The notes beneath the pieces were generated by a model. That model had not been told where the DNA came from and did no database searches. It was given only the letters and a program-made list of their open reading frames with translations. From Pseudomonadota bacterium (GTDB lineage: Bacteria; Bdellovibrionota_B; Oligoflexia; Oligoflexales; RGVZ01), in NCBI GenBank assembly GCA_041178085.1, contig JBEGVZ010000023.1, positions 1-39,429 on the forward strand: a DNA stretch of 39,429 bases, written 5' to 3'. Below are positions 14,479 through 39,429 of this stretch, piece by piece (within the stretch, counting starts at the first letter, position 1; every line of letters begins with the position of its first letter). Both the position numbers and the translations under genes were made by a program.

Positions 14479-14495
14479 GGTTTTTGTCCTGTTTG

Positions 14496-16171: not shown

Positions 16172-16180
16172 TTATCCACA
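16172..16180 (+). promoter_or_regulatory. DnaA box (perfect) in the dnaA/atp divergent intergenic region
   Basis: TTATCCACA exact match in an AT-rich context. Confidence 0.85.
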
Positions 16181-16236
16181 GGTGATTTTATGTTGATCTC
16201 ATTAAAAATAAGTTTGTCGATGGCTGCGGGGGTGGG

Positions 16237-16512: not shown

Positions 16513-16523
16513 ATGCGAAGGGA

Positions 16524-16901: not shown

Positions 16902-16993
16902 GCAGCGGTCGGCGTTTGATTTATCGTCCCGGGCCGAAAGAGTTTTGATTGGTGGCCTTCTCGGCAAATAATAGCGCAGGTGGGGTATCCTTT

Positions 16994-17770: not shown

Positions 17771-17815
17771 TGTGTCGTGCAGTGTGGTTCGCATTTTTTT
17801 ATTGAGGGTTGAGTT

Positions 17816-18136
17816 ATGAAAAAGATCGTTTCAGCAGCAACTGTGGTTGGAAGCATGTTGGCAGCCACCTCTGCTTTTGCAGAAGGTGCAGAGGCGGCAG
17901 CGGCTTCTACGGGTTCAAATGGCCTCGTGGCCCTTGCCTCCTGTTTGGCGATTGGTGTTGCGGCCTTTGGCGCAGCGACTAGCCAAGGTAAGGCTGTGGC
18001 AGCGGCTCTTGAGGGTATCGGACGCAATCCGAACGCTCGCGACCAGCTTTTCATGCCGATGATTCTCGGTTTGGTTTTCATGGAATTCCAGGCACTCATG
18101 GGTTTCATCGTCGCGTTCCTCTGGTACAGCAAGTAA
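17816..18136 (+). CDS. atpE: ATP synthase Fo subunit c with N-terminal signal-like extension
   Basis: Hairpin with loop 'GIGRNP' and carboxylate Glu in 'LVFMEFQAL'. GAGGG SD upstream. Confidence 0.95.
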   Translation: MKKIVSAATVVGSMLAATSAFAEGAEAAAASTGSNGLVALASCLAIGVAAFGAATSQGKAVAAALEGIGRNPNARDQLFMPMILGLVFMEFQALMGFIVAFLWYSK

Positions 18137-18156
18137 TCCTGAACTGTTTTGAGAGT

Positions 18157-18189
18157 AAAAGACCGCCCTGTTTGGGGCGGTTTTTTTTT
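18157..18189 (+). terminator. Rho-independent terminator after atpE
   Basis: AAAA-GACCGCCC-tgtttg-GGGCGGTT followed by a T tract (9 T in total). Confidence 0.9.
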
Positions 18190-18192
18190 GAC

Positions 18193-18208
18193 TGTTCCAC
18201 GTGGAACA
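18193..18208. promoter_or_regulatory. parS: parS site 1
   Basis: Perfect palindrome TGTTCCACGTGGAACA. Confidence 0.95.
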
Positions 18209-18254
18209 ATGCGCGACACTAGAGTGGGTTGGGGGGGGTGCTTTTATTTCCGAA

Positions 18255-18270
18255 TGTTCCACGTGGAACA
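18255..18270. promoter_or_regulatory. parS: parS site 2
   Basis: Perfect palindrome TGTTCCACGTGGAACA. Confidence 0.95.
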
Positions 18271-18302
18271 ATGGGTTCCATAACCTCTCGAAGGTTGTGC
18301 AA

Positions 18303-18318
18303 CGTTCCACGTGGAACA
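18303..18318. promoter_or_regulatory. parS: parS site 3
   Basis: CGTTCCACGTGGAACA, one terminal mismatch. Confidence 0.92.
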
Positions 18319-18341
18319 TCGCATTTCAGCGAATGATGATC

Positions 18342-18370
18342 TTGCCTCAGTTGAGCGCCTGCGGTAATGT
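18342..18370 (+). promoter_or_regulatory. Candidate sigma70 promoter for parAB
   Basis: TTGCCT-N17-TAATGT, 39 nt upstream of the parA ATG and downstream of the atpE terminator. Confidence 0.5.
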
Positions 18371-18409
18371 CCCGGTCAATTCTTCCTGTTACGAGTTGAG
18401 GCTCTATCG

Positions 18410-19240
18410 ATGGCGCGAATCATTGCCGTTTCAAATCAAAAGGGTGGTGTGGGCAAGACAACTACGGCTGTTAACATAGCCGCCTGTCTAGCTGCCGCCG
18501 AAAAAAAGGTGTTATTAGTCGACCTCGACCCCCAGGCCAACGCAGCAAGCGGCCTCGGTTTTGCTGCCGGAGAAATCTCCGAAAGCATGTACTCCGTCTT
18601 GGTCGATGAAATGCCCATCAAGAAAATCATCCTAAGCACGGAACTAAAGTGCCTCGATTTGGCCCCCGCCAACCAGGATTTGATTGGCGCCGAGATTGAG
18701 CTTGTAACCGCTATTGGCAGAGAAGTTCGTCTGAAGGACGCTCTGACTCAAGTCAAAGACCAGTATGATTTCGTTGTGATCGATTGTCCGCCAGCATTGG
18801 GTATACTTACCGTAAATGCACTGACCGCGGCCGATTCAGTGCTCATCCCACTCCAATGCGAGTATTACGCGATGGAGGGGCTATCCCAGCTGTTAAAGAC
18901 AATTACCTTGATTAAAAAACGCCTGAACCCGGAATTGCAGAAGGAGGGGATCCTTCTCACTATGTACGACCGCCGCAACAACCTTAGCTTCCAGGTCGAA
19001 CAAGATATTCGTAGTCATTTCGGTGACGAAGTTTTCAAAACCGTGATTCCCCGGAATGTGAAGCTTTCCGAGGCGCCGTCCCATGGCAAGCCAGTGATTC
19101 TCTACGATATCGGAAGTTCGGGGGCAGCCGCCTACATGGAGGTAGCCGCTGAACTGATAAAACGGCACCACTCTTCCGATGATAGCCAGCAAGTTATTCC
19201 ATCCAACCGCGGGCAAGAATACCCGCATCTCGGGGGCTGA
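18410..19240 (+). CDS. parA: Chromosome partitioning ATPase ParA/Soj
   Basis: Deviant Walker A 'NQKGGVGKTTT', 'DLDPQAN', 'IDCPP', 'QCEYYAMEG', 'IPRNVKLSEAPSHG'. Confidence 0.97.
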   Translation: MARIIAVSNQKGGVGKTTTAVNIAACLAAAEKKVLLVDLDPQANAASGLGFAAGEISESMYSVLVDEMPIKKIILSTELKCLDLAPANQDLIGAEIELVTAIGREVRLKDALTQVKDQYDFVVIDCPPALGILTVNALTAADSVLIPLQCEYYAMEGLSQLLKTITLIKKRLNPELQKEGILLTMYDRRNNLSFQVEQDIRSHFGDEVFKTVIPRNVKLSEAPSHGKPVILYDIGSSGAAAYMEVAAELIKRHHSSDDSQQVIPSNRGQEYPHLGG

Positions 19241-19242
19241 TC

Positions 19243-20187
19243 ATGACAATGAACGACAGGACAACCCGCCGGGGCGCACTAGGTAAAGGAATCACTTCGC
19301 TTTTGGGCGATTTTTCTGAAAATACAGCAGCGCCTGTTGCCAGCCGACCAGATGCTGCTGAGACTCTTCGGGAACGGCCGTCCGTCAAGGACGGATACGG
19401 TGCTTTGTTGATTGATGTGACCAGCATCGAGCCGAATCCCCAACAGCCCCGAAAGCTGTTTGACGACAAGGCGCTAGGTGAGTTGGCGGCTAGCCTTCGC
19501 CAGGACGGCTTTCTTCAGCCCATCGTCGTCAGTCGCATGCAAGATAAACCCGGCAAATTCATGATTGTTGCCGGGGAACGCCGCTGGCGCGCTTCCCAGT
19601 TGGCGGGGTTGCAATCGGTTCCGGTAATTGTCAAAGAAGGGGCGGAGGACGACCTTCTACGCCTTGCGCTGATCGAGAATATTCAGAGGCAAGACCTTAA
19701 TATTATTGAGGAAGCTGAGGCTTATCAGGCCTTGATCAAGGATTACGGCCTGACCCAGGAACAGTGCGCGGACCGTGTTGGAAAGGATCGTACGTCGGTC
19801 ACCAATGCGCTGCGATTGTTGTCTCTGCCCAAGGAGCTGCAAGACGACCTGCTGGAGGACCGGTTGACCATGGGGCATGGCAAGGCGCTTTTGTCTCTCG
19901 AAGATAAAAAGCTGATCCTGCGTGCCCGCGACATGGTTATCAAAAAGCAGATGAGTGTCCGCCAGACGGAACAGCTGTGCCGCGGCCTCAAGCGTGGCGG
20001 CGACCTGTCAGACAAGCCGCGCGGCCCCAAAAACCAGGCCGATCTTGAATACCTGTCAGAAAATCTCAAGTCGAGGTTGCGCACCAAAGTAAAAATTCTG
20101 GGCAATGGGGTCCGCGGGAAAATCGAAATTTCCTATTTCTCTGCCCAGGAGCTGGAACGACTGCTCGCGGTCCTTGGCGAAAAGTAG
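19243..20187 (+). CDS. parB: Chromosome partitioning protein ParB/Spo0J
   Basis: N-terminal 'LGKGI..L', 'PNPQQPRK', CTP-binding 'AGERRWRA', 'ENIQRQDL', HTH 'LTQEQCADRVGKDRTSVTN'. Confidence 0.97.
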   Translation: MTMNDRTTRRGALGKGITSLLGDFSENTAAPVASRPDAAETLRERPSVKDGYGALLIDVTSIEPNPQQPRKLFDDKALGELAASLRQDGFLQPIVVSRMQDKPGKFMIVAGERRWRASQLAGLQSVPVIVKEGAEDDLLRLALIENIQRQDLNIIEEAEAYQALIKDYGLTQEQCADRVGKDRTSVTNALRLLSLPKELQDDLLEDRLTMGHGKALLSLEDKKLILRARDMVIKKQMSVRQTEQLCRGLKRGGDLSDKPRGPKNQADLEYLSENLKSRLRTKVKILGNGVRGKIEISYFSAQELERLLAVLGEK

Positions 20188-20306
20188 ACGAAAAAACCTG
20201 GCGATTTCTGCAAATACACCTTGAGCCGCCCGATTTTCTTGAGTAAAAATCGCCGGCCACTCTTGGTGGTTTTCGACCATTTGCATCAAGGTAGACAGGT
20301 CCACTC

Positions 20307-20744
20307 ATGGCACAACTGAACCTCGCACCAGTCCCCTCCGTTGTCGCAATCCAAGCTGTTGTTTTTCTCGTCAACATGGTGATCATCCGGAAGCTCTTCC
20401 TTGACCCTTACCTCCGTCTGCGCGCCCGGCGTGACGCGCTGACTGCAGGAAGTAAGGCAGATGCCAATCGCTTGCTTTTTGAATGCGACGAGATTGCTGC
20501 CAAGGTTCAGGAGCAGATTGACACCGCTGCGGCTGTGGCCGCATCTGACCGGGAGCGCATCAAGACAGAGGCGATGAACAAGCGCTCAGGGATCATCAGC
20601 GCTGCTGAAGAAAAAGCAAAAAATGAGTTTGATTCGGTTGCATCGCGGATCAAGCAAGAAGTGATTGAACAACGTCGTTTGCTGCCGCAGGTGATTGAGC
20701 GACTTACAGATGAAGTTTTCAAACTAGCAACGAACAAGCACTAG
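20307..20744 (+). CDS. ATP synthase Fo subunit b'
   Basis: N-terminal TM, 'LF..P......R', then Ala/Glu/Lys-rich coiled coil. First of two b-type genes before atpH. Confidence 0.85.
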   Translation: MAQLNLAPVPSVVAIQAVVFLVNMVIIRKLFLDPYLRLRARRDALTAGSKADANRLLFECDEIAAKVQEQIDTAAAVAASDRERIKTEAMNKRSGIISAAEEKAKNEFDSVASRIKQEVIEQRRLLPQVIERLTDEVFKLATNKH

Positions 20745-20753
20745 GAACCGACC

Positions 20754-21248
20754 ATGGAGAACGTAAATACGCTCACCGGAATCATTCTCCCTTACTTTAA
20801 CTTCGCGGTGTTTATCGCGCTGTGCGTACTCTTTTTTCGCAAGCCACTGCGTCAGATTGCGGAAAAGCGCCGCGCAGATTTTGAAAGCCACCTGCGCGAA
20901 GCAACCAGGGCCAAACAGGAAGCACTGGAAAAAAACCGGGAACTTACGGAGCGCCTGCGCAAGCTCGACGCTGAGATAGAAGACATCAAAAATTCCGTTG
21001 TCGAGGCGGCCCAAAAAGACGCAGACCGGATCGTTCATGATGCGGAAGCCTTCTCGCGCAATCTTCTTGAGGATGCCCGGCGCATGGCGGACGCGGAAAT
21101 CGAGCGCGCACGCGTTCTGCTGACGTCCGAGATTGTCGCTTCGGTCCGCACAGCCGTCGAGGCCAAGATTCGTTCAGATCTGAAACCTGCGGATCACTTG
21201 TCTTTGATCAACCAAAATGTCGGCAGCCTTGGTGAGCTGAACGTTTGA
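20754..21248 (+). CDS. atpF: ATP synthase Fo subunit b
   Basis: 'FNFAVFIALCVLFFRKPL....KR' followed by coiled coil. Confidence 0.9.
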   Translation: MENVNTLTGIILPYFNFAVFIALCVLFFRKPLRQIAEKRRADFESHLREATRAKQEALEKNRELTERLRKLDAEIEDIKNSVVEAAQKDADRIVHDAEAFSRNLLEDARRMADAEIERARVLLTSEIVASVRTAVEAKIRSDLKPADHLSLINQNVGSLGELNV

Positions 21249-21264
21249 ACAAGGGAGTCGAGCC

Positions 21265-21804
21265 GTGAGTGCCATCAGAATCGCGAACCGCTATGCAAAG
21301 GCCCTCTATCGCATCGCAGACGGCGATACCCGTCTTGCCCACGAATTTCTTGGGCATGTGAATGCTGCGCGGGCCTTGTTTGACATCGAACCTGCGGCCA
21401 AGGTGCTTGAAAGCCCAGTGATGCCCCAGGACTTGAAGAAAAAGCTCTTCGCGGCAGCCTTCAATGCTTCTGGCGCCAAGCCTGAGCTCCAGGCCTTTGT
21501 TGGCGCTCTGATCGCCGCAGGCCGCGTGAATCTCTACCCCGCTTTCTGCGAGGCCTATGCCAGGCTGATCAATGAGGCAGAAGGCATTGTGCTTGCTGAT
21601 GTGACGACTGCCGTGGAAGTGGACGCCGCGGTGATCAAAAAACTTTCGGCATCCCTTGAGAAAATCCTTGGAACCAAAATTCAAACCAGTCAGCAAACGG
21701 ACCCCTCGTTGCTGGGTGGATTTGTCGTTCGCCTTGGCAACAAGATGATCGACATGAGTGTGAAGACCAAACTTGAAGCGCTCACCAAAAGCGCCGCTCT
21801 TTAA
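21265..21804 (+). CDS. atpH: ATP synthase F1 subunit delta
   Basis: 'IANRYAKAL', 'DPSLLGGFVVRLG..MIDMS'. GTG start with GGGAG SD. Confidence 0.95.
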   Translation: MSAIRIANRYAKALYRIADGDTRLAHEFLGHVNAARALFDIEPAAKVLESPVMPQDLKKKLFAAAFNASGAKPELQAFVGALIAAGRVNLYPAFCEAYARLINEAEGIVLADVTTAVEVDAAVIKKLSASLEKILGTKIQTSQQTDPSLLGGFVVRLGNKMIDMSVKTKLEALTKSAAL

Positions 21805-21825
21805 GAGAACCAGGAGGCTGTTACC

Positions 21826-23332
<1,507 letters not shown>

Positions 23333-23340
<8 letters not shown>

Positions 23341-24202
23341 TCTGAAGGATACCAAACGACGCATCGTCAGCGTCCGCAACACGCAGAAGATCACGCATGC
23401 CATGAAGTTGGTGTCAGCGGCGAAATTCTCCCGTGCAAATCAGGCGGTTCTGGCAGCGCGCCCGTACGGCACCGCATTTGACCGGATCGTCGGCCGGCTT
23501 GCCGCTGGTGTCGAAAACCTGGACGGAATGGAACTCCTCAGGTTTACCGAGACCCCGCGCAAAGTGCTTGTGGCGATAGTCTCGACTGACCGGGGCCTTT
23601 GCGGCAGCTTGAACACAAACGTATTCAAGACGGCAATGAAGTTTCACCGTGAAAACGAGGTCCAGGGTTGCGAAGTTCACTTTGCCACTCTCGGCAAGCG
23701 GGCCGGCATGTTTTGCCGCAAACTGGGTCTGAAAGTCGTTTTTGAGCGCGAAAAAGTCCTGGAAAGGCCGGGTTATGCGGCCGCCAGGGAAATCTCGGAT
23801 GCGCTGGGAGCCATGTTCACCTCGGGCGAGTATGACCGCGTTTATCTGTGCTTCCCGGAGTTCAAGTCTGTCCTGTCCCAGAACCCACGGATCAAGCAGA
23901 TGTTGCCAGTGGTGACACCTGAAGTCGGTGATGACGAACACGAGACGCTCAATTTCATCATTGAACCCGATACCCGCAGCGTTCTTGAGAGCATGTTACG
24001 CAAACATGTTGTCAACACAGTGTTCCGGGCGCTCCTCGAGGGCAGCGCATCTGAGCACGGTGCCCGCATGACTGCCATGGATTCCGCAACCAAGAACGCA
24101 AAAGAGTACATCCGCAAGTTGACGCTCCAGTACAACAGGGCGCGTCAGGCGGCGATTACCAAAGAGTTGATAGAGATCATCAGCGGCGCAGAGGCGATCT
24201 GA
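23333..24202 (+). CDS. atpG: ATP synthase F1 subunit gamma
   Basis: True start '[22 protein letters not shown]' at ATG 23333 (8-nt overlap with atpA). 'DRGLCG', '[10 protein letters not shown]', '[12 protein letters not shown]'. Confidence 0.97.
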
Positions 24203-24225
24203 TCCCGCAAATGGTTTTGAAATGA

Positions 24226-25683
<1,458 letters not shown>

Positions 25684-25704
25684 AGCAAAGGCGGGGCAGG
25701 GGAC

Positions 25705-27221: not shown

Positions 27222-28268
27222 ATGCCGCATTCTCATAGAAGCCATGGAAATTCCTCCAGCCATCACGAGCGGATTCGTGGAGGAAAGCCAACGCCAACTG
27301 TCATGGTTACCGGCAGTTCCGGTTTCATCGGACAAAAAGTCATCCGGCTTTTCTCGAACCAGGGAACCAGCACAATTGCGACCTATTATCATAGGCTCCC
27401 CGAGGCCCTGCCGCAGGTTTTCCCTGTGTGCACCGACATGGCTTCGCCGGAACTTCTACTAGCCCCCTTGCGCAATGTGACAACGGTTGTCCACCTTGCC
27501 TGGGACGGTGGCCTTGCGAGTTCTTTGACCGAAGCACAGATGAATGGGGAAGTCCGAGACTTGCTCCGCCCCGAGCGCATGTCCCGTAATCTTGCGATGA
27601 TGGCCAACCTGCTTGCAGCGATGGAAAGAGTCGGTAACCAGCGAATCGTCTTTGTCAGCGCGATGGGCGCGAGCCGTCATGCAGAATCCCCGTTTTTGCG
27701 TGAGAAATACGCAGCAGAACTGATGCTGCTAAATTCCCGCGTGCGGGAAAAGGTCATCTTGCGCCCAACCATCCTTGCTGAACCCGAAAATCCAAATGAC
27801 CGCTTTGTTCGCGCTATACTGCGGACCATGAAGCTACCCCTGCTGTATCCAGTCCCTCGGGTTGCCAATCAGCTGCGCCCCATGCATGTCGATGATTTTG
27901 CCAGGAAGATTGTCTTGGCCACGGAGGCCCATCGCGAAGAACCTTCTCTGGTTGGAGAAGTTTGCGGGGGGGAGATGTTACCCGTTGAAGAAGTGTTCCG
28001 CCTGTTGGCCGATAAGTTTTTCGCTGGCCAGAAAATCGCCATCAAAGGCTGGCTTGGCAATCTTTTGACAGCCCTATTTGAGCGGGTCAGGAAGAACGAG
28101 ATGCAGTACCGGAACCATCGCTTGCGCCAGTTCCTGGCCCTTGCCCAGTTGCCATCGGATTCTCTCATGGATGCTTTGTCAGATGGATCATCGGCGGCGG
28201 CAGGTCGATACATCAGCTTCACTGAATCGGTGCAGGTGGCCGCGCCACCCGCACCGGCATCCAGTTAA
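27222..28268 (+). CDS. Atypical SDR / NAD-dependent epimerase family protein (NDUFA9-like)
   Basis: 'VMVTGSSGFIG', 'VVHLA', 'VFVSAMGA', 'SPFLREKYAAE', 'ILRPT', 'PMHVDD'. Confidence 0.85.
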   Translation: MPHSHRSHGNSSSHHERIRGGKPTPTVMVTGSSGFIGQKVIRLFSNQGTSTIATYYHRLPEALPQVFPVCTDMASPELLLAPLRNVTTVVHLAWDGGLASSLTEAQMNGEVRDLLRPERMSRNLAMMANLLAAMERVGNQRIVFVSAMGASRHAESPFLREKYAAELMLLNSRVREKVILRPTILAEPENPNDRFVRAILRTMKLPLLYPVPRVANQLRPMHVDDFARKIVLATEAHREEPSLVGEVCGGEMLPVEEVFRLLADKFFAGQKIAIKGWLGNLLTALFERVRKNEMQYRNHRLRQFLALAQLPSDSLMDALSDGSSAAAGRYISFTESVQVAAPPAPASS

Positions 28269-30076
28269 TCGAGCGAAATATCCTGATTTGCATTACGCAG
28301 GAAGGCTGGGACGTCGAGGTCATCGAGGCCCTCGTTTGCCGTATGCGGTGAGGCCACCTGAGGTTTCGCCGAAGCGCCGCCAGCCGGATGAATGGCCTTC
28401 GCTGTCGCCCCTGCCGCACGAAGCTTCTGTGCCAGAGCAAGCGCCTCGTCAATCTTACGGTCAATGTCACCAGTGAGGTCCATGTTATTCATTTCCAGGC
28501 TGTGAGCCCGGTTAACCGGCGCTTCCTGTGCGGCTACCGATGCAGACAGACCAGCTTCGAAGAATGATTCAATCGGCGCATCCGCCGTAGCAGCCAAGTC
28601 TTGCAGATCATCATCCGCAAAGCTGTCGTCGAAGATGCTTGAAGCCACGTCAGCCCCGTGAACGTTGACAGCAGTTGTTTCTTCTTCCGTTACCGCCTCA
28701 AATTCCTCTTCAAAGGCGCGGTTGGGCTCACCGGTCGAGGCATCATCCAAGCTCGTTTCAAATTCTGTCAGCTCGCTGGCGTGAGCGGAAGGCGCACCCT
28801 GCTGTGCAGGAATAATCTCCTCGTCGATTGGGAGATCTTCACCAGCCGTCGTTTGGTCGATCGTCCAGCGGGCAAGCTCCTGGGCTTCTGCAATGGCTTC
28901 GATTTTTTGCTGCGAGATTGTATCCGGCTGCATTGCCGCCATTGGCTGGCTATGCCGTTCGGGCGATGTCGCCGTCAGGGCAACTGGCTTTGCGGGTGTC
29001 ACGTTTGTCGTAGACGCCCTTTGCCCGGTGATCACATCGGCGCCAGTGGCGTAATTGGGCGAATAGATGGCGGTATGGGCGGGCCGCAGGATTTCGTTAC
29101 TGGTCGTGGCACCAGAGTCAACGGGAAATCCAGTTGCGATCACAGTCACGCGGATGGCGTCTCCCAGGCTTTCGTCAATGACGGCGCCCCAAATGCTGGT
29201 CGCGTCCTCATGAGCTGACTCCTGGACGATCGTACAGATTTCATCGACTTCCATCAGGCCCAGTGAAGATCCGGCGGTGATGCTGATCAGGACGCCGGTA
29301 GCTCCCTGGATATCAAGGTCGTCAAGCAGCGGCGACGAGATTGCCATGCGGGCGGCTTCGGCTGCGCGCTTGGGACCCGTTGCATGACCGATCCCCATGA
29401 GGCTGTGCCCCATGTTTGACATGACCGTCTTGACGTCGGCAAAGTCCGCGTTGATCAGGCCAGGAACGTTGATGATGTCGCTGATCCCGCGGACTGCATT
29501 GACTACGACGTTGTCTGCCATCTTGAATGCATCGATCATGCTGAGGTCTGGCGTTGCGATCTGCAGCAGGCGCTGATTCGGGATTGTGATCAGGGTGTCG
29601 ACGGCTTCGCGAAGTCTGGCGATTCCAGCTTCGGCATACTTGCGTCGTCTTTTGCCTTCAAAGTTAAAAGGCTTGGTCACGACAGCCACGGTCAGGGCAC
29701 CAAGCTCCCGGGCAATCTGGGCAATGACAGCGGCACCGCCAGTGCCTGTGCCTCCACCCATACCGGCCGTAATGAAGACCATGTCTGCACCCTTGAGGGC
29801 GGCTTCGATATCTTTACGGTCTTCCAGTGCAGATTCACGACCAACGTCAGGATCAGCCCCGGCACCGAGCCCCTTGGTCAGTTCCTTGCCAATCTGGATG
29901 TGCGTTGCCGCCATGGAGAACCTCAGCGCCTGCACGTCAGTGTTCGCGCTGATGAACTCAACGCAATCGAGGCCCGCCCGGATCATGGTGTTCACGGCGT
30001 TGCCGCCGCCTCCGCCCACCCCTATGACTTTGATTTTAGCTCCCGGCGGATTGATCAATTCCGGTTCAAATCCCAT
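28265..30076 (-). CDS. ftsZ: Cell division protein FtsZ with very long C-terminal linker (603 aa)
   Basis: 'IKVIGVGGGGGNAVN', tubulin signature 'GGGTGTG', T7 loop 'INADFADV', C-terminal peptide 'DDLDVPAFLR'. ATG 30076 is preceded by GAGGAGG. Confidence 0.97.
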   Translation of the reverse strand: MGFEPELINPPGAKIKVIGVGGGGGNAVNTMIRAGLDCVEFISANTDVQALRFSMAATHIQIGKELTKGLGAGADPDVGRESALEDRKDIEAALKGADMVFITAGMGGGTGTGGAAVIAQIARELGALTVAVVTKPFNFEGKRRRKYAEAGIARLREAVDTLITIPNQRLLQIATPDLSMIDAFKMADNVVVNAVRGISDIINVPGLINADFADVKTVMSNMGHSLMGIGHATGPKRAAEAARMAISSPLLDDLDIQGATGVLISITAGSSLGLMEVDEICTIVQESAHEDATSIWGAVIDESLGDAIRVTVIATGFPVDSGATTSNEILRPAHTAIYSPNYATGADVITGQRASTTNVTPAKPVALTATSPERHSQPMAAMQPDTISQQKIEAIAEAQELARWTIDQTTAGEDLPIDEEIIPAQQGAPSAHASELTEFETSLDDASTGEPNRAFEEEFEAVTEEETTAVNVHGADVASSIFDDSFADDDLQDLAATADAPIESFFEAGLSASVAAQEAPVNRAHSLEMNNMDLTGDIDRKIDEALALAQKLRAAGATAKAIHPAGGASAKPQVASPHTANEGLDDLDVPAFLRNANQDISLD

Positions 30077-30157
30077 GGGACCTCCTCGATCGGTTTTGGC
30101 ATGCATGTAAAAGCCAAAAAGAAACAAAAATGAATAAAATTGGTTCTTTGTTTAATT

Positions 30158-30187
30158 AGTATAGGTAGGGCGAAAGAAAAGTGTCAA
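30158..30187 (-). promoter_or_regulatory. Near-consensus sigma70 promoter upstream of ftsZ
   Basis: Minus strand TTGACA-N18-TATACT in the AT-rich ftsA-ftsZ spacer. Confidence 0.75.
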
Positions 30188-30232
30188 TGATCTGCCGGAA
30201 ATCACATAGATAGCTTCCCGACATTTCGACTG

Positions 30233-31504
30233 CTAGCTCATGTCCTTGAGCCAGTCGCGCAATCGCGTGATCAGCGACGGGGCGGGCAGGGCCGCGCCGG
30301 TAAAGTTACCATCCGCGGATTCGCCTTTGGATTGCGCCAGATTCTCGTCCATGGATAGTACGAGAAGCCCAAGCGCGGTCGCAAATTTTGGTGCTAACCG
30401 TGTCGTCACCAGCGATCCAGGGGCCGGGTCGACAAACTTCGGATTGATCGCCTTAACCGGGACCTTCATGCTGGCAGACATCAATTCAGGCAGTCCCTGC
30501 AACTGGCTTCCGCCTCCGGTCAGCAAAATGCCGCCGCCAAGCTTGCCTTTGAACGGCACCAGTTGTTTGGCCACAGCGATCGTGAGTTCCTTGCACCTTG
30601 CCTCAATGATCCGTGCGACCAGCTCTCCGGAAACTTGCTTCTGTGCGCCATGAATGGATTCAACGGTAATCGACTCAGCCGCCGACGCGGAGAGACCATA
30701 AATTGTCTTGATCCGCTCAGCCTCCCGATGGGGGATGTTGAGGGCAACAGAAAGGTCTGCCGTCATGGAAAAACCGGCCATGGGCACCGAGAATGCGAGG
30801 GCCGGCTTGCCGTTGACAAATACCAGCCCATCACTGGTACCGCCGCCGATATCAACCACGCAGCAGCCGAGAGACCTGAATTCGGTTCCAGCACAGACAT
30901 GGGCCGAGGCAAGGGGCTCTGAAACGAGCCGGGTCACGCGGATACCGGCCCCGTTGACCAGACGCACCACGTCGCGCAGATACCCCTTGTCGGCATCGAT
31001 CATCAAGAAGTCGGCAGACAAGGTCGAACCGGAAAAACCAGTCGGGTCGTCGACCGGATCTCTCTGGTCGACTTGCCAGCCTGTAGCGACAGCATCGAGT
31101 AAATCGCGCTGGCTGGCGGCATTGCTCGTCGAAAAAGAAGACACCATTTGTTCATTGAGCTTGCGCAGAGCCTCGCCCGTGATCGGCTGATCTGCCCGGA
31201 GGGCGATGGAACCCTTTGCCACATGACTGCGGAGGTGGCTGCCGGCGATTCCAACGACGGCGTGTTCAATGTCGCAGTCCCACCGGGACTCGGCTTGTTC
31301 GACAAGTCCTGCCAGGCATTCCAGCGCACTGTTGAATTCAACGATCATGCCCCGGCGCGTACCGCGTGCGGGCACCGCAAGGCTGTCGATTACTTGCGCA
31401 GACGGGTTCAATCCATTTGCGCCGAAAGCAGCGGGGTTGACGCGAGCAATGCAGAACTTGCTCGTGCCAAGGTCGATCGCATAAATTTGGTGGTTCTGCT
31501 TCAC
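30233..31504 (-). CDS. ftsA: Cell division protein FtsA (divergent)
   Basis: Actin-fold motifs 'AIDLGTSK', 'VVDIGGGTSD', 'AERIK', 'LTGGGSQL', and C-terminal amphipathic helix 'LITRLRDWLKDM'. GTG 31504 (TTG 31507 alternative). Confidence 0.92.
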   Translation of the reverse strand: MKQNHQIYAIDLGTSKFCIARVNPAAFGANGLNPSAQVIDSLAVPARGTRRGMIVEFNSALECLAGLVEQAESRWDCDIEHAVVGIAGSHLRSHVAKGSIALRADQPITGEALRKLNEQMVSSFSTSNAASQRDLLDAVATGWQVDQRDPVDDPTGFSGSTLSADFLMIDADKGYLRDVVRLVNGAGIRVTRLVSEPLASAHVCAGTEFRSLGCCVVDIGGGTSDGLVFVNGKPALAFSVPMAGFSMTADLSVALNIPHREAERIKTIYGLSASAAESITVESIHGAQKQVSGELVARIIEARCKELTIAVAKQLVPFKGKLGGGILLTGGGSQLQGLPELMSASMKVPVKAINPKFVDPAPGSLVTTRLAPKFATALGLLVLSMDENLAQSKGESADGNFTGAALPAPSLITRLRDWLKDMS

Positions 31505-31541
31505 CAAAAAACCCCCTCATGGCGGAAACAACCAGAGCCGC

Positions 31542-32357
31542 TCAAATCTTTCGTTCCTTGATGAACGCTTTGCCGTGATAGTCGAGTTCGATCCTGCTCA
31601 CACGATGGCGTTCGATCCTTCCAAGCACTTCGGAAAGCCTTGAAATCTTATCAGCAAAAGGCGCACGCCCCATGGCCACTTCGAGCATGTCTGGCTTCAT
31701 GATCACCATGTAGCCCCGGTGGGCATGGTATCGCAGAGCGGCGGGCTCTAGCCCCTCACTGCTGAGCTTGCCTTTAAGGTCAATTGCCTCGCCAACCACT
31801 GAGTCTGTCGCCCCCTGTGCAACAGAAACTCCTTCAAGAAGGGGGAGCGCAGCTTCCTCCTCCTGCCCTGGCAGTACACAGCATGATCCGTAGGCGAAAC
31901 CGTCGTTATCCACCAATAGATTGCCCCCAGGCCCTGCGCGCAAGGCCGGTGTCCGTTTTTCAAAAGCGACCAGCAGGCGACCCGGCGAGGTGCGCATGAT
32001 GTTGACACGGGCAAGTGGAGCGACGCTTGCGGCGATGTGCGCGAGCTCCTTCAGATCACGTCCGCCATTTGCGGCCGTAATCAAACGGTCAGACAGTGCT
32101 GCGCGGTCAAAGTCTCGCAGTTCACCAGTTTGTCCACCGACAAACTCAATGGCCCGCACGGGGCGCACGACAAACTGCTTGAAGCCATGGGATATCCGTC
32201 CAGCCACATAGGACGGTAGAAAATAAAAGACAGCGCAAATTCCGCACGCAATGGCAAGACGCGCCGCAGATCCCAGAATTTTCCGGCGCGTGACGCCAGC
32301 GTGTTTGCGGCGTTTTCTTGCAAGTTTTTGCCCAGCAATTGCGGACGGTCTAGCCAA
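31542..32357 (-). CDS. ftsQ: Cell division protein FtsQ/DivIB-like
   Basis: Basic N-terminus, single TM, POTRA-like 'V.IMR..PGRLLV.FE.RTP', 'LLVDNDG', 'LPLLEG', C-terminal 'RIELDY'. Between murC and ftsA. TTG 32357 has a GGGAG SD. Confidence 0.8.
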   Translation of the reverse strand: MARPSAIAGQKLARKRRKHAGVTRRKILGSAARLAIACGICAVFYFLPSYVAGRISHGFKQFVVRPVRAIEFVGGQTGELRDFDRAALSDRLITAANGGRDLKELAHIAASVAPLARVNIMRTSPGRLLVAFEKRTPALRAGPGGNLLVDNDGFAYGSCCVLPGQEEEAALPLLEGVSVAQGATDSVVGEAIDLKGKLSSEGLEPAALRYHAHRGYMVIMKPDMLEVAMGRAPFADKISRLSEVLGRIERHRVSRIELDYHGKAFIKERKI

Positions 32358-33741
32358 CCAGGTTCTCCCGCAGGATGTTCGCGACTTTCCAGACGTCTCC
32401 AGCACCTACAGTTAAAATTATCGCTGGACGGGAGGAAAGTTGCAAAGCCATGCGGGAAGCTTCTGATTTGTCCGAACAAAGGACAGCATTTGTTGAAGAA
32501 GCCAAGGAGATATCCTTGGCCAGACCGGCAAGATCGGGGGTCGAAACGGGGGATTCACCGGCAGCGTAGACCGGCAACAAGATGACATTTGTGGCTCCCC
32601 GAAAGGAAGACACGGTCAGGTCGTACATGGTTTCAAGGCGTGAATAACGGTGCGGCTGATGAATGACAGTGATGTGATGAGACGGCCAGGCACTTCTCAC
32701 TGCTGCGATGCAGGCCTGGATTTTTCCGGGGTTGTGGGCATAGTCATCGATGACCTTGACTTGCTCATCGTCGACAACAACCTCCATGCGCCGACTAACA
32801 CCGGCGAAAGTTTCCAGTGACTGTGCTGCAATCCTGACATCCAGTCCAAAGGCCCTGGCCACAGACAGACCGGCCAGCGCATTCAGGACATTATGGCGCC
32901 CGGCAAGGGGCAGCTTGCATCGTAAACGGTCTCGTTCCACGACGGCAGTAAAGGTCGTCTCGAAACCCCTCGTCTGGATGTCAATTGCCCTGACTTCGCA
33001 GCCAAGAAGAAAGCCGTAGGTCAGCCTGGGGCGGTTGATGCCTTCAGAAACCTCACGGACGACCGGGTCATCCCAGCAGCAGACGACGCCGGCATCGGGG
33101 TCAGATGTCTTCAAGTAATCATGGAACGCTGCCTTGATGTTTTCAAATGAACCATAAAAGTCCAGGTGATCACGGTCGACGTTGGTCAGCACAGCAAGCG
33201 TCGGCTCGTATTTCAAAAAAGTGCCGTCCGACTCGTCGGCCTCCGCAACAAAGAACCTGCCATCACCAACTCTTGTGCTTGAGTGGACGTCCAGCATGAC
33301 GCCGCCAACGACCGCGCCTGGTGCAGCCCCGCAGGAAGTGAGCACGTGGGTGATCAGCGCTGTGGTCGTCGTCTTGCCGTGGGTTCCTGCCACAGTGACG
33401 GAGTTTGCGCCGCGCATCAGCCGGGCAAGAAAATCAGAGCGATGGAGGACCGGGATACCGCGCGCGCGAGCTTCGAGCAGCTCTGGATTGTCCGGCTTGA
33501 TCGCAGATGAGACGATCACCTCATCGATATCGCCAAGGTTTGTGGCCCCGTGATCAAGGAAAACCTTCGCCCCGAGCAATTCGATGCGACGCAGGCTGTC
33601 ATTGTCGGCAACGTCACTCCCGGTCACATCCCAGCCCATGCCGAGAGCATATTCGGCAAGGCCTGACATGCCGCTACCGCCGATGCCAATGAAGTGGCAT
33701 TTGATTTTTTTAGGTGGAGGGGGCTTCAAGCCGGCGACCAT
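32350..33741 (-). CDS. murC: UDP-N-acetylmuramate--L-alanine ligase
   Basis: 'HFIGIGGSGMSGLA', 'VAGTHGKTTTT', 'EADESDGTF', 'DDYAHNP', 'QPHRYSR', 'GAGDV'. ATG 33741. Confidence 0.96.
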   Translation of the reverse strand: MVAGLKPPPPKKIKCHFIGIGGSGMSGLAEYALGMGWDVTGSDVADNDSLRRIELLGAKVFLDHGATNLGDIDEVIVSSAIKPDNPELLEARARGIPVLHRSDFLARLMRGANSVTVAGTHGKTTTTALITHVLTSCGAAPGAVVGGVMLDVHSSTRVGDGRFFVAEADESDGTFLKYEPTLAVLTNVDRDHLDFYGSFENIKAAFHDYLKTSDPDAGVVCCWDDPVVREVSEGINRPRLTYGFLLGCEVRAIDIQTRGFETTFTAVVERDRLRCKLPLAGRHNVLNALAGLSVARAFGLDVRIAAQSLETFAGVSRRMEVVVDDEQVKVIDDYAHNPGKIQACIAAVRSAWPSHHITVIHQPHRYSRLETMYDLTVSSFRGATNVILLPVYAAGESPVSTPDLAGLAKDISLASSTNAVLCSDKSEASRMALQLSSRPAIILTVGAGDVWKVANILRENLVG

Positions 33742-34924
33742 CGCGGAGCATTGTCTCCTGGCCCTCAGGGATCGTGGACTCGCGGGCCAGGCGCGAGAGT
33801 ACACCAGTCACGGCCAGGAAGACCAGCAAACTGCTAGCTCCACTGCTTACAAACGGAAGGGGCATGCCCTTGGTTGGGAGCAGACCCATCGTGACTCCCA
33901 TGTTCAGGGCCGACTGGCCAAAGATGAGCACGCTGCAGCCAAAGGCCAGCAGGGCCCGGTATCGGCTGGTTTGCCGGGCCGCTACCGCAAGGCCAACCCA
34001 GGTCATGAAGCAAAAAGCCATGGCGACAAGGAGTATCCCGATCAGACCAAGCTCCTCACCAATCACAGACAGAATGAAATCTGTGTGGGCCTCTGGCAGG
34101 AAAAAAAGCTTTTGCCTGGATTCGCCCAGACCAGTTCCCCAGAACCCACCATTCTTGAAGGCAAGATAGCTTTGGATGATTTGGAAACCTTTGCCGCGGA
34201 CTTCCGCCCAAGGATCGAGAAAGCTCATCAGGCGGGCCATGCGGTAGGGTGCCGCCACCACGGCTGCAACCATCCCGCCGACGCCCACAAGGGCCATCCC
34301 GGCAAGGTATTTAAAAGGCAGCCCGGCCGCGAAAAGCATTGAGACCGTCAGGAAACCCAGGAGTACGGTCGAGCCAAAGTCAGGTTGCCTCATGAGACAA
34401 ACGGCTAGCAGTCCAAAGGCGATTAAATTGGGAAGTATGCCCCGCATGAAACTCGAGACATCGGCGAGGGGGCGGCCCAGATTTCGTGCGAGGAACATGA
34501 TCAGGGCCAGCTTTGCCACTTCAGCCGGCTGAAAGGTGATCCCACCGAGATGAAGCCAGCGTGCGGCTCCGCCGCCAACCGTGTATACGCCGGGAATAAA
34601 AACGAGAGCCAGAGTACCAAGTGAAAACACATATGCTGGCAACGTAAGTCGCTCAATCCAGCGCCAAGGTACCTGCTGCATCACCAGGATTGCTACGAAG
34701 CCAGCGATTGCAACCAGGGCTTGCTTGCGGAAAAAAACCAAAGAGTCGCCAAATTGCTGGGCACCTTTCATGCTGGACGAGGCATAGATAGCAAGCAACC
34801 CAAGGCCCGTGAGCATGGCGGCACTAGAAACAATGGCCAGCGCAGCGTCCACGCGCCATTGCTTTGCCGGGCTAGTTCCCGTTGCGTTGGTCAGGGCTGC
34901 TGTCGAGCCATTGGTAGACCGCAT
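33710..34924 (-). CDS. ftsW: SEDS peptidoglycan polymerase FtsW
   Basis: 'GAARW', 'QPAEVAK', 'QPDFG', 'GFQIIQS', 'LPEAHTDFI', 'PTKGMPLPFVS.G'. ATG 34924 with AGGA SD. Confidence 0.95.
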   Translation of the reverse strand: MRSTNGSTAALTNATGTSPAKQWRVDAALAIVSSAAMLTGLGLLAIYASSSMKGAQQFGDSLVFFRKQALVAIAGFVAILVMQQVPWRWIERLTLPAYVFSLGTLALVFIPGVYTVGGGAARWLHLGGITFQPAEVAKLALIMFLARNLGRPLADVSSFMRGILPNLIAFGLLAVCLMRQPDFGSTVLLGFLTVSMLFAAGLPFKYLAGMALVGVGGMVAAVVAAPYRMARLMSFLDPWAEVRGKGFQIIQSYLAFKNGGFWGTGLGESRQKLFFLPEAHTDFILSVIGEELGLIGILLVAMAFCFMTWVGLAVAARQTSRYRALLAFGCSVLIFGQSALNMGVTMGLLPTKGMPLPFVSSGASSLLVFLAVTGVLSRLARESTIPEGQETMLRDGRRLEAPST

Positions 34925-37823
34925 GGTTGAATTCCTGTCCGCGGTGTTCAAAATTCCGGAACTCATCAAAACTTGCGCATCCCGGTGAGAACAGCAGCCC
35001 GCATCCTGCGCTACGGGCAGATTTTGCAGCAAAGGCAACGGCTTCCCTCATGCCCGGGAATACCTTTGTCTTCATTACTGAGGATAACTCATCAGCTATG
35101 ATTTGTCCTGATGCCCCGAAACAGATCAGAAGGTTAATTTTATCCTTGCTGGCAAGGATATCCCGGTAACTTTCACCTTTGCCCTTGCCGCCCATCATCA
35201 AGATTATTTGTGTTCCGGTGGCGATCCCGGCCAGTGCGGCGCAGGTCGATTCGCAGTTGGTGGATTTGCTGTCATTGATGACAGAGTGTCCTTCAATTTG
35301 TCCAATCCGTTCGCACCGGTATGGCAGGCCCCGAAAATCAGCCAGTGTGGCCAGCAACTCTTCTTCCTCAAACTGGGACTCCAGGTGTTTCGCAGCAAGG
35401 ATGGCCAGCCGCGAATTGATCTCCGCGGTGCTGGCGGATCGGATCCCAGGGATGACGATTTGGTGACTGTATGCCGGGATGCGAAGATTGAACTTCTCCG
35501 CGACCTCGGCCACGTCCGCCGTCATCAAGCAGAGGCCCCCTGGCTTGATTCCATCAAAGAGGCGCCATTTTGCCTGGAAATAAGCCTGCACGCTGCCGTG
35601 ACGCTCAAGGTGGTCGTGGGAAAAACTCGAGAATATGGCGACGTCACTCCTCAATGTCCGGCTTTGTTCCAGCTGGTATGAAGATAATTCCAGGACGACG
35701 TTTGACTTCAGTTCACCGCGCATCACCATGTCACTTGGTGGATCGCCGATGTTTCCGCCGACCGACACCGGTATGGCAAGCTTCCCAAGCAGATGGCCAA
35801 GCATCGAGACCGTGGTTGATTTACCATTTGTGCCAGTGACGCCAATCAGTCGCCCCGAAAAACCCTGCAACGCGAAATCAATTTCAGAACGGACAGGCAA
35901 CAGGCGTTTTTTGGCCTCGAGCAGGAGTGGATGATCGGCGCGGACTCCGGGTGAGAGCAAGACAAGCTCTGCGCCGTCCAGATGATTGGATGAGTGACCG
36001 CCATCGAAGCAGCTGATGCCGGCGGCCTCAAGCTGCGATTTTAATGCAGGATCCATGTCAGTCCGGTCACTGATGGCGACCTTCATTCCGCGAGATGCAG
36101 CAAGTCGCGCCGCGGCGATGCCACTCACGCCACCGCCGATAACCACAGCGCTGGTTGTGCCGGCGCGGACTGAAAGAGCCGAACGAGCCTCAGCGCGGTC
36201 GTCAAAGTGGTGACGAACTCCAGAAATTTCCTGATAATCCTCATGCCCCTTGCCTGCCACCAGGATCAAGTCTGAAGGTCCTGCATCACGGATTGCTACC
36301 GCAATTGCATCCGCGCGATCAGCAAGCCTGATCACGGGATTTGTCGACGGGCCACCAGCAAAACCGGCATCGATCTCGTTAAGGATAGCAGCGGGATCCT
36401 CTGACCTTGGATTGTCCGAGGTGATGATCACCTGGTCCGCGCCCTGGGCGGCAACGCGGGCCATCTCTGGCCGCTTGCCCCGATCCCGGTCCCCACCGCA
36501 GCCAAAGACACACCAAATCCTTGACTTGGAATCAGGTCGAATTTGCCGGACGATGGCGAGTGCTTTATCAAGCGCATCAGGTGTGTGGGCATAGTCCACG
36601 AATACAGCTGGAAGGTCCGCTTTGAATTTCTGCCCCGCCAACGCAACCCGCTCCATCCGCCCAGGCACAGGAAGGATGTCTTGCAGGTGGGAGGGAGACG
36701 GCCAGGTTTTAGTGATTTTTTCTGCCGCAAGAATTGCAGCAGTGGCATTTTCAACGAACACATCGCCAAAAACAGGCAACTCGACCTCAAGTCCCAGGTG
36801 CTTTCCGGTGCGGGCGTCGAACACAGAAAGACTCATCCGTGTACCTTCAGGCCGGGATGAAATGATCCTTGCGCTGGCACAGCTAAGGCCCGGCCAATCG
36901 GCCTGGTCAAGGCCGATTCCGTATATCCAGGTGTCGTCATGCCCCGATGCATGGTTGAACCCGGGTGTTGCCATTGCCCGATGCGCGACAGAAGCATGCA
37001 GGATCCTTCGACCGCCCGGAACCATGCGTTCGCTGAAAAGTCGCATCTTGGTCGCGAAGTAGTTTTCTTCGGTCCCATGAAAATCAAGATGATCGCGGGA
37101 GAAACTTGTGAATACGGCAGCGTCGAAAGTAAGGGGAACCACTTTTTCCTGGGCCAGGCTATGGGACGACACTTCCATGGCGCAGACTTTTGCACCAAGA
37201 CTTTTATATCCGGCAAGGTGCGGGTAGAGGAAATCTGGATCCGGGCTGGTGTGGCTGGTGGCGTTATGGGTATTGCGAAAATAAAGGCCCAGAGTGCCAA
37301 TGGAGACTGTCGGTTGGCCCATCGCATCTAAAATACCGCGCAGTAACCAGACCGTGCTCGTCTTGCCGTTGGTGCCTGTCACGCCAATTAACGATCCCGG
37401 GGTTGCGGCAGCGGTGTTTTCGGGATCACGGGCAGCTTCTACTTCCAGGACTGCCCAAGCAGCACGGGCACTGCTTACACAAAAGACGACCAAAGTTGCC
37501 CTGATTTCCTCTGGTAGCGCAGCCATCAAGCGCGTCAGCTTCGCTTCGTTATCGCCAACCAGGGTCCGGCAGCCCGCTTCGATGGCGCGTTCAGCAAAGT
37601 CATGGCTGTCCGCCCTGGTGCCGGAGAACATGAGAAAGATCGAATTTTTTCCCGCGGATCGACTGGAAACAGAAATCCCAAGCGGCTTAGCGTCGTCTGC
37701 CGTGCCGCTAGCCCACAGTAAAAGACCGGCTTTTTCCAGGGCGCTGCGTGCCTTCGATCCTGAGATCGGCCTTCTTGACCATGGACCTTTTTCTTGAACC
37801 AAGCTCTTAGAGTCTCCCGGCAC
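34872..37823 (-). CDS. murE-murD: Bifunctional MurE-MurD fusion (mDAP ligase N-terminal, D-Glu ligase C-terminal)
   Basis: One uninterrupted frame. MurE half: 'GVTGTNGKTS', 'MEVSSH', 'VDYAHTPDAL', 'FGCGGDRD.GKR', 'SDNPRSE', 'AGKGHE.YQ'. MurD half from about 36160: 'VIGGGVSG', 'SPG', 'TGTNGKSTT', 'ELSSYQL', 'NDSKSTN', 'SPGCASFDEF.NFEHRG'. Start uncertain (ATG 37880, GTG 37823, TTG 37802). Confidence 0.92.
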   Translation of the reverse strand: MPGDSKSLVQEKGPWSRRPISGSKARSALEKAGLLLWASGTADDAKPLGISVSSRSAGKNSIFLMFSGTRADSHDFAERAIEAGCRTLVGDNEAKLTRLMAALPEEIRATLVVFCVSSARAAWAVLEVEAARDPENTAAATPGSLIGVTGTNGKTSTVWLLRGILDAMGQPTVSIGTLGLYFRNTHNATSHTSPDPDFLYPHLAGYKSLGAKVCAMEVSSHSLAQEKVVPLTFDAAVFTSFSRDHLDFHGTEENYFATKMRLFSERMVPGGRRILHASVAHRAMATPGFNHASGHDDTWIYGIGLDQADWPGLSCASARIISSRPEGTRMSLSVFDARTGKHLGLEVELPVFGDVFVENATAAILAAEKITKTWPSPSHLQDILPVPGRMERVALAGQKFKADLPAVFVDYAHTPDALDKALAIVRQIRPDSKSRIWCVFGCGGDRDRGKRPEMARVAAQGADQVIITSDNPRSEDPAAILNEIDAGFAGGPSTNPVIRLADRADAIAVAIRDAGPSDLILVAGKGHEDYQEISGVRHHFDDRAEARSALSVRAGTTSAVVIGGGVSGIAAARLAASRGMKVAISDRTDMDPALKSQLEAAGISCFDGGHSSNHLDGAELVLLSPGVRADHPLLLEAKKRLLPVRSEIDFALQGFSGRLIGVTGTNGKSTTVSMLGHLLGKLAIPVSVGGNIGDPPSDMVMRGELKSNVVLELSSYQLEQSRTLRSDVAIFSSFSHDHLERHGSVQAYFQAKWRLFDGIKPGGLCLMTADVAEVAEKFNLRIPAYSHQIVIPGIRSASTAEINSRLAILAAKHLESQFEEEELLATLADFRGLPYRCERIGQIEGHSVINDSKSTNCESTCAALAGIATGTQIILMMGGKGKGESYRDILASKDKINLLICFGASGQIIADELSSVMKTKVFPGMREAVAFAAKSARSAGCGLLFSPGCASFDEFRNFEHRGQEFNHAVYQWLDSSPDQRNGN

Positions 37824-39429
37824 TGTGATCCCCGGCTTTGGAGAGGGACAAGCGCCCTTCCTCAAGGTCAGCCGCAACATTCAGGTACTTCAACGATTTC
37901 TGTGCAATTTCCGAAAAAACCGGTGCCGCCCACAAGCCGCCATATGCCGGTTTTTCTTGCGGCTCGTCTATCACAACAAGGATCACCAGGTAAGGATCCT
38001 CAACCGGGGCAAATCCGACAAATGAGGCAATCCGCTTATCCGCCGAGTATATCTTCCGGACCGGGTCAACTTTTTGGGCGGTGCCGGTCTTGCCGCCAAC
38101 AGAATAAGAGGTAGTGCCAGCCTTCGAACCTGTGCCGTGCGGATCCGTGACGACTCGCGACAGCATTTTTCTCATTGTGTGGGCAACCTCTGGCGAGACA
38201 ACGCGGCGGACTACCTCGGGATGAAACGAGGCAAGGACGCTCCCATCGGCCGCTTCAATCCGGTCGACAAGGGTAGGTCGCATGAGGTTACCGCCATTGG
38301 CAAGGGCTCCATAGGCCTGGACAACCTCGAGTCCGGTGGTGGTCATCCCTTGACCAAAAGCAATGTTCGCAAAACGGATCGGAAGCCAGGACGCAAAGTG
38401 GCTGACTCGCCCGGATGGCCATGGTGGAGCGCGCAGGTTGAGATCACCCGACTCCCCGCTGTTGGCACTTCCAGGCAGGTTTCCGTTGAAGCCAAAAGCC
38501 ATGTAAGTGTTGAAAAATGTCTCTTTACCGAGTCGTTCGGCGATCTTATAGGTGCAAATGTTACTGGACCGGATCAGGGTGCCGGCGACGTCAAGAACCT
38601 TGGCCGGATGGTCGTCGCGGAAGGTGACGCCACCAACACGGTATGCGCCGTTTTCGCAATCAAAGGTTTCCTCGGCGCGGACTTTTTTCTTTTCCAGTGC
38701 GCCTGCGATCACAAACGGCTTGATGATGGAACCTGGTTCAAACTGGTCAAGAAGGGCGGAGTTCCTGGTTTGTTCGACCTTGAGTTGACGGACGTCATTG
38801 GGATCAAACGAAGGATGATTGGCAACCGCAAGGATTTTTCCTGTGTGCGGATCGGAGACCAAAGCAAAGGCTCCCTTTGCCCGGGCTTTTTCGGCGCCCT
38901 TTTTCAGGGCCTCTTCGGCAATTTCCTGGATCACGCGATCGAGGGTCAAGTGGAGCGAGTGGCCTGGTGCCTCCGGCTCGGCCTGGTCATCACCAGTAAA
39001 AATACGTCGCCCCTTTGCGTCGCGGGCCCCCTTGATCCGCTGTGATTGGCCGCGCAGTTCCCGGTCGTAGAAAAGTTCAAGGCCGTGGAGCCCTTTGTTG
39101 TCGAGTCCAACATAACCCAGCAGCTGCGCAGCGGCAGGCCCCGCGGGATAAAATCGGGCGGATTCGGTGATCTCGTAGATACCCGAAATCCCCATCGCCA
39201 TGATTCGTTCGGCGACCCTGTGGTGTACCTGGCGTGCAAGCCACGCGAAGTAGCCGGATCTGTCGGCGACCTGCTGGATTTCGCGCGCCGGGATTTCAAG
39301 TATGCGCGACAGGTTTTTTACCTGGCGATGGTCTGGATTGAATACACGTGGATTGACTGCGAGAGATGGTGTCCGGATGCTGATCGCCAGAGGCTCTTCC
39401 CTGCGATCGAACACACCCCCTCGATACGG
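37807..39429 (-). CDS. ftsI: Class B penicillin-binding protein FtsI/PBP3 (5' end beyond the window)
   Basis: 'RG.VFDR...LA', 'RFYP', 'GLE', SxxK 'EPGSIIKP', SxN 'RSSN', 'FGQG', 'GKTGTAQK'. Frame is open to the window edge. Confidence 0.95.
   Translation of the reverse strand, partial: PYRGGVFDRREEPLAISIRTPSLAVNPRVFNPDHRQVKNLSRILEIPAREIQQVADRSGYFAWLARQVHHRVAERIMAMGISGIYEITESARFYPAGPAAAQLLGYVGLDNKGLHGLELFYDRELRGQSQRIKGARDAKGRRIFTGDDQAEPEAPGHSLHLTLDRVIQEIAEEALKKGAEKARAKGAFALVSDPHTGKILAVANHPSFDPNDVRQLKVEQTRNSALLDQFEPGSIIKPFVIAGALEKKKVRAEETFDCENGAYRVGGVTFRDDHPAKVLDVAGTLIRSSNICTYKIAERLGKETFFNTYMAFGFNGNLPGSANSGESGDLNLRAPPWPSGRVSHFASWLPIRFANIAFGQGMTTTGLEVVQAYGALANGGNLMRPTLVDRIEAADGSVLASFHPEVVRRVVSPEVAHTMRKMLSRVVTDPHGTGSKAGTTSYSVGGKTGTAQKVDPVRKIYSADKRIASFVGFAPVEDPYLVILVVIDEPQEKPAYGGLWAAPVFSEIAQKSLKYLNVAADLEEGRLSLSKAGDHSAGRL

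Follow-up and report, generated by a model that had tools for sequence, protein, structure and literature searches.

The window analyzed here is a stretch of 39,429 nucleotides from a Pseudomonadota bacterium (GenBank assembly GCA_041178085.1, contig JBEGVZ010000023.1; GTDB lineage Bdellovibrionota_B, Oligoflexia, Oligoflexales, RGVZ01; genome G000 below), and on its minus strand, at 34872..37823, lies a single gene for two peptidoglycan ligases, a murE-murD fusion of 983 amino acids when read from the GTG at 37823. The frame is free of stops over 1002 codons (34872-37880) and gives 1002 amino acids from the ATG at 37880, from which residues are numbered throughout; the GTG at 37823 is an in-frame start at residue 20, where the ESM Atlas entry also begins. 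A plus-strand reading at the same coordinates is ruled out by its many stops. The first-pass annotation had described a MurE running in frame into a MurD with no stop between them, a description borne out by the open minus-strand frame and by matches to the curated models of both enzymes, and on the sequence evidence the fusion is real and intact.

The MurE half (36174..37679, minus strand, residues 68-569) is a three-domain Mur ligase of the meso-diaminopimelate (meso-DAP) type, matching TIGR01085 over its full length (profile positions 6-471 of 472) at 443.9 bits against a cut-off of 257.3. It also exceeds the cut-off of NF001126 (428.9 bits; cut-off 373) and falls below that of the Lys-type model NF010628 (244 bits; cut-off 536). 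The P-loop GTNGKT is at 37359..37376 on the minus strand (residues 169-174), with G169, T170, G172, K173, and T174 unchanged in all 65 fusions aligned (alignment A1, consisting of this protein and 64 database matches, with P0004 left out). Equally invariant is DNPR at 36405..36416, minus strand (residues 489-492), which we take to be the meso-DAP motif; this and GKGHEDYQ (residues 543-550) are the motifs named in the first-pass annotation, now located. The MurE motifs G169-T174, D263-H268 (DHLDxH), K278, and D489-R492, whose roles we presume, are all present and invariant or nearly so in the 65 fusions, and the half is predicted to add meso-DAP to UDP-N-acetylmuramoyl (UDP-MurNAc)-L-Ala-D-Glu.

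The MurD half (34917..36146, minus strand, residues 579-988) matches TIGR01087 over its full length (profile positions 3-439 of 441) at 367.4 bits against a cut-off of 211.95, with Pfam MurD-like_N at residues 577-661; the TIGRFAM check proposed for each half in the first-pass annotation therefore puts both above cut-off. It has the N-terminal GxG strand, SPG, the P-loop GTNGKST (35814..35834, minus strand, residues 683-689; G683, N685, G686, K687, and T689 invariant in 65 of 65), ExSSYQ, DHL, DSKxTN, and the C-terminal SPxxxSxD, with roles that we again presume. K771, DHL, DSKxTN, and SPxxxSxD are invariant or nearly so across the aligned fusions, and this half is predicted to add D-Glu to UDP-MurNAc-L-Ala. 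MurF was considered as an identity for the C-terminal half and rejected (TIGR01143, 104.5 vs. 288.6 bits; NF008896, 462 vs. 1023 bits).

The halves meet without a linker at 36138..36200 (minus strand), where in an AlphaFold2 model computed on A1 the last MurE helix (residues 561-575) leads into the first MurD strand (577-581). The predicted local distance difference test (pLDDT) score of this model is 91.3, with 90-96 over residues 561-600, and its whole-chain predicted template modeling score (pTM) is 0.81; the ESM Atlas model is less certain (pTM 0.66). In Foldseek comparisons each half matched solved MurE and MurD structures, respectively, at a template modeling (TM) score of ~0.8 to the target. 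The junction peptide quoted in the first-pass annotation corresponds to residues 557-587 (36120-36212). That annotation saw no obvious internal Shine-Dalgarno sequence and start. One in-frame start, GTG 579, precedes the MurD GxG motif; its ribosome-site score is weak (-1.7 kcal/mol), but weak scores are seen in split relatives too and the score alone proves little. This sole candidate start reads GTA in sequencing run X5.

The stretch 35950-36450 is bridged without gaps by an individual contig from run X2 (study P2) and by another from run X5 (study P3); these are assembled contigs rather than raw reads, and runs X9 and X10 span parts of the region only. The 13 variant sites listed in the bridging contigs are synonymous in 11 cases and missense in two, with no stops, and a stop, frameshift, or misassembly at the junction, the outcome that would have undone the first-pass claim, was looked for in the X2 and X5 contigs and was not present. 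A separate record, P0002, is fused in the same way, with 62% identity over the searched region and a junction of equal length. P0148 (487 amino acids, 100% identical) was rejected as a split form, as its contig is short and its sequence begins within MurE, at residue 517.

The canonical order of the division and cell wall (dcw) cluster in this part is murE-murF-mraY-murD, and MurD and MurE catalyze consecutive steps, predicted here to place the second and third amino acids on the cell-wall peptide. In the window the minus-strand order is ftsI, murE-murD, ftsW, murC, ftsQ-like, ftsA, and ftsZ. Upstream of the fusion lies a gene for an ftsI-type class B penicillin-binding protein (37807..39429, minus strand), which is truncated by the contig end and terminates in a stop that overlaps the fused gene's start. 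Directly downstream is ftsW (33710..35038, minus strand; TIGR02614, 363.8 bits, above cut-off), given here as its longest frame with a true start probably nearer 34900, followed with no murG between by murC (32350..33804, minus strand; TIGR01082, 440.4 bits, above cut-off). Profile matches identify ftsQ-like, ftsA, and ftsZ genes as the remainder of this compact cluster (28265..32405, minus strand). FtsZ (28265-30127) carries an acidic C-terminal extension of ~280 residues past its TIGR00065 match. Elsewhere in the window, 7918-25700 holds what we take from the translations to be gyrA, gyrB, dnaN, dnaA, parA, parB, and a split ATP synthase operon, and a change of GC skew near 14-18 kb makes this a likely replication origin region.

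G000, which is 96% complete, yielded no second murE or murD: a search with the whole protein returned three matches, namely itself, murC, and a weak one on contig C114. With no second copy of either gene found, this genome would have to obtain both steps from the fused one. The first-pass annotation ascribed the fusion to loss of murF-mraY from this position, and both are indeed absent from it, but murF and a mraY-like gene are relocated in the genome rather than lost. A murF above its cut-off is present on contig C85 (37416-39221), in a 601-codon frame whose ligase domains are preceded by a Lys/Ala/Thr-rich stretch, and ~1.4 kb downstream of it is a frame that we presume to be ddl-like. Contig C110 has a mraY-like gene (3542-4615; 138 bits, below the cut-off of 192), which comes after a presumably recA-like frame, and contig C46 a murG-like gene (9527-10780; 237 bits, below the cut-off of 250); these last two are divergent and, like murF, lie outside the dcw cluster.

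All six other genomes of the same genus have separate murE and murD genes, which meet at the same place in an ATGA stop-start overlap, and the same overlap occurs in a genome of another family (G031). Identity between these split congeners and the fused protein is ~50% in MurE and 54-57% in MurD. A junction query against 95 genomes of the order matched within a single open frame in G000 and in all 14 genomes of its sister genus, g3, although the match in one of these (G017) is cut by a contig end. No in-frame junction was present among the matches listed in the other 80 genomes, three of which had no match, nor among those listed in a phylum search of 36 further genomes; matches outside those listed numbered 22 (all weaker) and 69, respectively. 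We fetched 40 hand-picked dcw loci from the order, and these comprise 13 with murE-murF-mraY-murD, seven with murE-murF-murD, three with murE-mraY-murD, nine with murE and murD adjacent but split, one in which the two are separated by an insert (G007), and seven fused. Between them, these loci represent every stage from murE-murF-mraY-murD through adjacency to fusion. None of the 40 (L118-L157) had a match to murG, which seems to have left the cluster early in the order. The G007 insert (L124, 7852-8567) encodes a DUF6036 nucleotidyltransferase and a BrnA/CopG-like antitoxin, and the cluster of this genome also lacks murC. In G013 (L128) the fused gene and ftsW each occupy two frames, probably through assembly errors.

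A tree of ftsI, ftsW, ftsA, murC, and ftsZ places G000 as sister to five split congeners and the split G007 as sister to g3 (support 0.989). On a tree of MurE plus MurD (34 chosen rows) P0001 and P0002, the fusions of the G000 type, form a group with the split congeners, supported at 100 in the SH-like approximate likelihood ratio test, and G007 falls elsewhere, so its position is unstable. Approximately unbiased (AU) tests rejected a single clade of the G000-type and g3 fusions (p-AU 0.0005) and a single clade uniting the 13 fused rows of this class (p-AU 2e-70), both under LG+G4 on a quick tree and with groups named after earlier trees had been inspected. Trees built for MurE alone and for MurD alone place Pseudomonadales-type and other fusions at a distance from this class. 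The central segment of MurD, at 113 residues in P0001 and P0002, 109-127 in the split congeners, and 144-155 in the g3 clade (110 in the partial P0011), fits the tree in its lengths, which by themselves leave the direction of change unfixed. Junction length ranges from 41 to 57 residues among the fusions, with no common motif beyond those of each enzyme, and is 46 residues in the G000 type against 43 in g3, where it is the same in all 28 aligned proteins of the clade. Several origins of the fusion overall are well supported, and two within the family that holds G000 and g3 (f1) is the simpler reading, dependent on the position of G007.

The architecture extends well beyond this order. Among the best 120 of 2379 matches to a database search with residues 400-800, 65 have MurE followed by MurD, as judged by position; the others are 46 MurE-MurF proteins, two partial MurE-MurD (P0016 and P0049), one MurD-MurE, three MurE-MurE-like, and three of other kinds (P0062, P0084, and P0088). 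TIGR01085 and TIGR01087 both matched these 65 at E 1e-62 or better, in 34 of 34 proteins of set A2, which includes the one described here, and in 32 of 32 of set A3. Cluster labels among the fusions include Pseudomonadales (the P0058 cluster) and Planctomycetota (a 453-amino acid member of the P0056 cluster), and related MurD proteins carry source labels such as Oligoflexales, Pseudobdellovibrionaceae, Deltaproteobacteria, and Zetaproteobacteria. The search for proteins of the same architecture called for in the first-pass annotation was thus successful, and with these 65 and the 14 g3 genomes the fusion is not unique. The source databases annotate MurE-MurD fusions as plain MurE or MurD. P0063 is a fusion in reverse order (MurD at residues 18-447, MurE at 458-926, both above cut-off). 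P0034, P0020, and P0039 are tandem MurE-MurE-like proteins of ~980 amino acids, and P0034 (18 members) contains two full TIGR01085 stretches. No fusion was found in 401 genomes around G131 (query P0058, E 1e-140), in a search run without a positive control. A metagenome scan with P0053 had no fused gene among the 80 loci listed, at 32-42% identity, a related-loci search of genome contigs had none with murE beside or fused to murD among the 80 distant loci listed, and an ESM Atlas feature search returned single MurD clusters only. Judged from the sequences recovered, the architecture is recurrent in uncultured bacteria.

We consider it probable that these fusions are a recurrent merge of neighbors that came about after murF and mraY had moved, and that the product is a tethered bifunctional ligase holding both halves in one chain at a ratio of 1:1. 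Departure of murF and mraY from the dcw cluster would have left murE and murD translationally coupled, and a small indel at their overlap could then have removed the stop and start to give one frame. By Mur ligase chemistry, the C-terminal MurD half would add D-Glu to UDP-MurNAc-L-Ala and release the product, to which meso-DAP would then be added by an N-terminal MurE half, in the same chain or a different one, with flux running from the C-terminal to the N-terminal half. The likely effect would be fixed 1:1 stoichiometry and co-localization rather than a closed channel, and the fusion is likely to persist because it is cheap and hard to reverse. Tethering is favored over channeling because congeners do without the fusion, junctions vary in length without a common motif, and the reverse order exists. 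Some of the evidence weighs against this interpretation. The fusion is retained in 14 of 14 g3 genomes, and selection rather than tolerance may lie behind its repeated origins; the whole-chain pTM of the model means that the halves may be rigidly packed; the constant g3 junction suggests an interface that became constrained after fusing; and the AU tests are compatible with one ancestral fusion followed by fission.

It is unlikely, in our judgment, that selection acted on substrate hand-over, in which a rigid MurE-MurD interface would position both clefts for MurD to deliver UDP-MurNAc-Ala-Glu to MurE while releasing little of it. The clefts of Mur ligases are open and the MurD product is a stable intermediate, separate genes suffice for six congeners, the junction differs in length and sequence from lineage to lineage, and a reverse-order fusion exists in P0063. 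Hand-over would nonetheless suit two enzymes that act consecutively and are joined with no linker in a confident whole-chain model, as well as an architecture that arose several times, is fixed in g3, and keeps a 43-residue junction in 28 proteins of that clade. Bordetella pertussis MurD, moreover, is reported to bind the central domains of MurE-MurF, with a dissociation constant of ~0.8 uM and via a region that includes the MurE C-terminus (PMC10214165). A bolder form of the same idea, which we put forward only as a speculative and rather improbable one, is that MurE-MurD is an overlooked, repeatedly evolved chimera class in several phyla whose rigid junction captures the true surface on which MurD and MurE dock in the cytoplasmic Mur complex that has long been proposed, with the dipeptide intermediate handed between sites.

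A single ancestral fusion in family f1, with the six split congeners and G007 resulting from later fission, also seems doubtful. Both fused groups do belong to this family, and if the unstable G007 is placed outside, one fusion and one fission tie with two fusions. With G007 as sister to g3, however, the scenario costs three events rather than two; neighboring but split genes that share the ATGA overlap are also found in another family (G031), and junctions of 46 and 43 residues separate the G000 type from g3. The idea that an assembly or consensus error produced the single frame, or that in the cell two proteins are translated from it or arise by cleavage of the chain, would suit a 136-contig assembly whose six same-genus relatives are all split, but is very improbable given gap-free, stop-free contigs from two other studies, the equally long junction of fused P0002, and a GTG 579 that is weakly scored and replaced by GTA in X5.

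The chief value of the fusion lies in the combination of a fused gene and split close congeners, a natural matched pair for testing whether fusion does anything beyond tethering. Fusions are the main structural handle on the question of whether Mur ligases assemble into a complex and pass intermediates along within it. The order further preserves every stage of dcw erosion preceding fusion. New chemistry is not shown by the fusion.

A 2023 survey of Mur chimeras (PMC10214165) names MurE-MurF, MurC-Ddl, MurC-MurB, MurG-MurC, MurD-FtsW, MraY-MurG, and four rare types, to which MurE-MurD would add a consecutive-ligase pair. Neither MurE-MurD nor MurD-MurE occurs in the main text of the survey, MurE-MurD is not among the types in the legend of its Fig. 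S1, and the survey excluded chimeras from unidentified species, which is where MurE-MurD fusions lie. The available part of PMC8067016 does not touch on murE, murD, or fusions, and no description of a MurE-MurD fusion was found in a literature search that had most subscription journals outside its reach, in which the string MurE-MurD turned up in one paper, on Bacillus SpoVD (PMC3906833). The first-pass suggestion of a possibly undescribed architecture agrees with this absence from the survey types and the literature searched, but at 65 of the best 120 matches the architecture is not unique. None of 24 solved sequences matched at E 1e-20 is a MurE-MurD fusion by name; the solved structures give sequence matches of E 4e-67 for MurE and, at best, E 3e-48 for MurD, the two being united here in one chain. 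The stand-alone Escherichia coli MurE (1E8C), E. coli MurD (2UAG), and Acinetobacter baumannii MurD (7TI7) each match their half at the TM score of ~0.8 given above.

The closest known system is B. pertussis MurE-MurF (PDB 8F5D; NF008896; PMC10214165, PMC6420597), which was the top Foldseek match and in which an N-terminal MurE is likewise joined without a linker to a second complete, pathway-adjacent ligase. Each of its halves is functional independently (PMC10214165), and a fit to small-angle X-ray scattering data puts its sites ~35 A apart (PMC6420597). In the protein described here, by contrast, the second half is MurD, and NF008896 scores 462 bits against 1023 and covers residues 69-576 only. 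The whole-chain geometry also differs (TM 0.39/0.49, root mean square deviation 21.6 A), and the domain order runs against the order of the pathway. The genes murE and murD are, moreover, not neighbors in the canonical cluster, and murF and mraY therefore had to move first. The natural chimeras of the survey likewise join peptidoglycan genes that neighbor each other in the dcw cluster (PMC10214165), and here too two peptidoglycan enzymes share one reading frame with no assembly error. Apparently undescribed in the papers searched, MurE-MurD belongs with the known natural Mur chimeras in kind.

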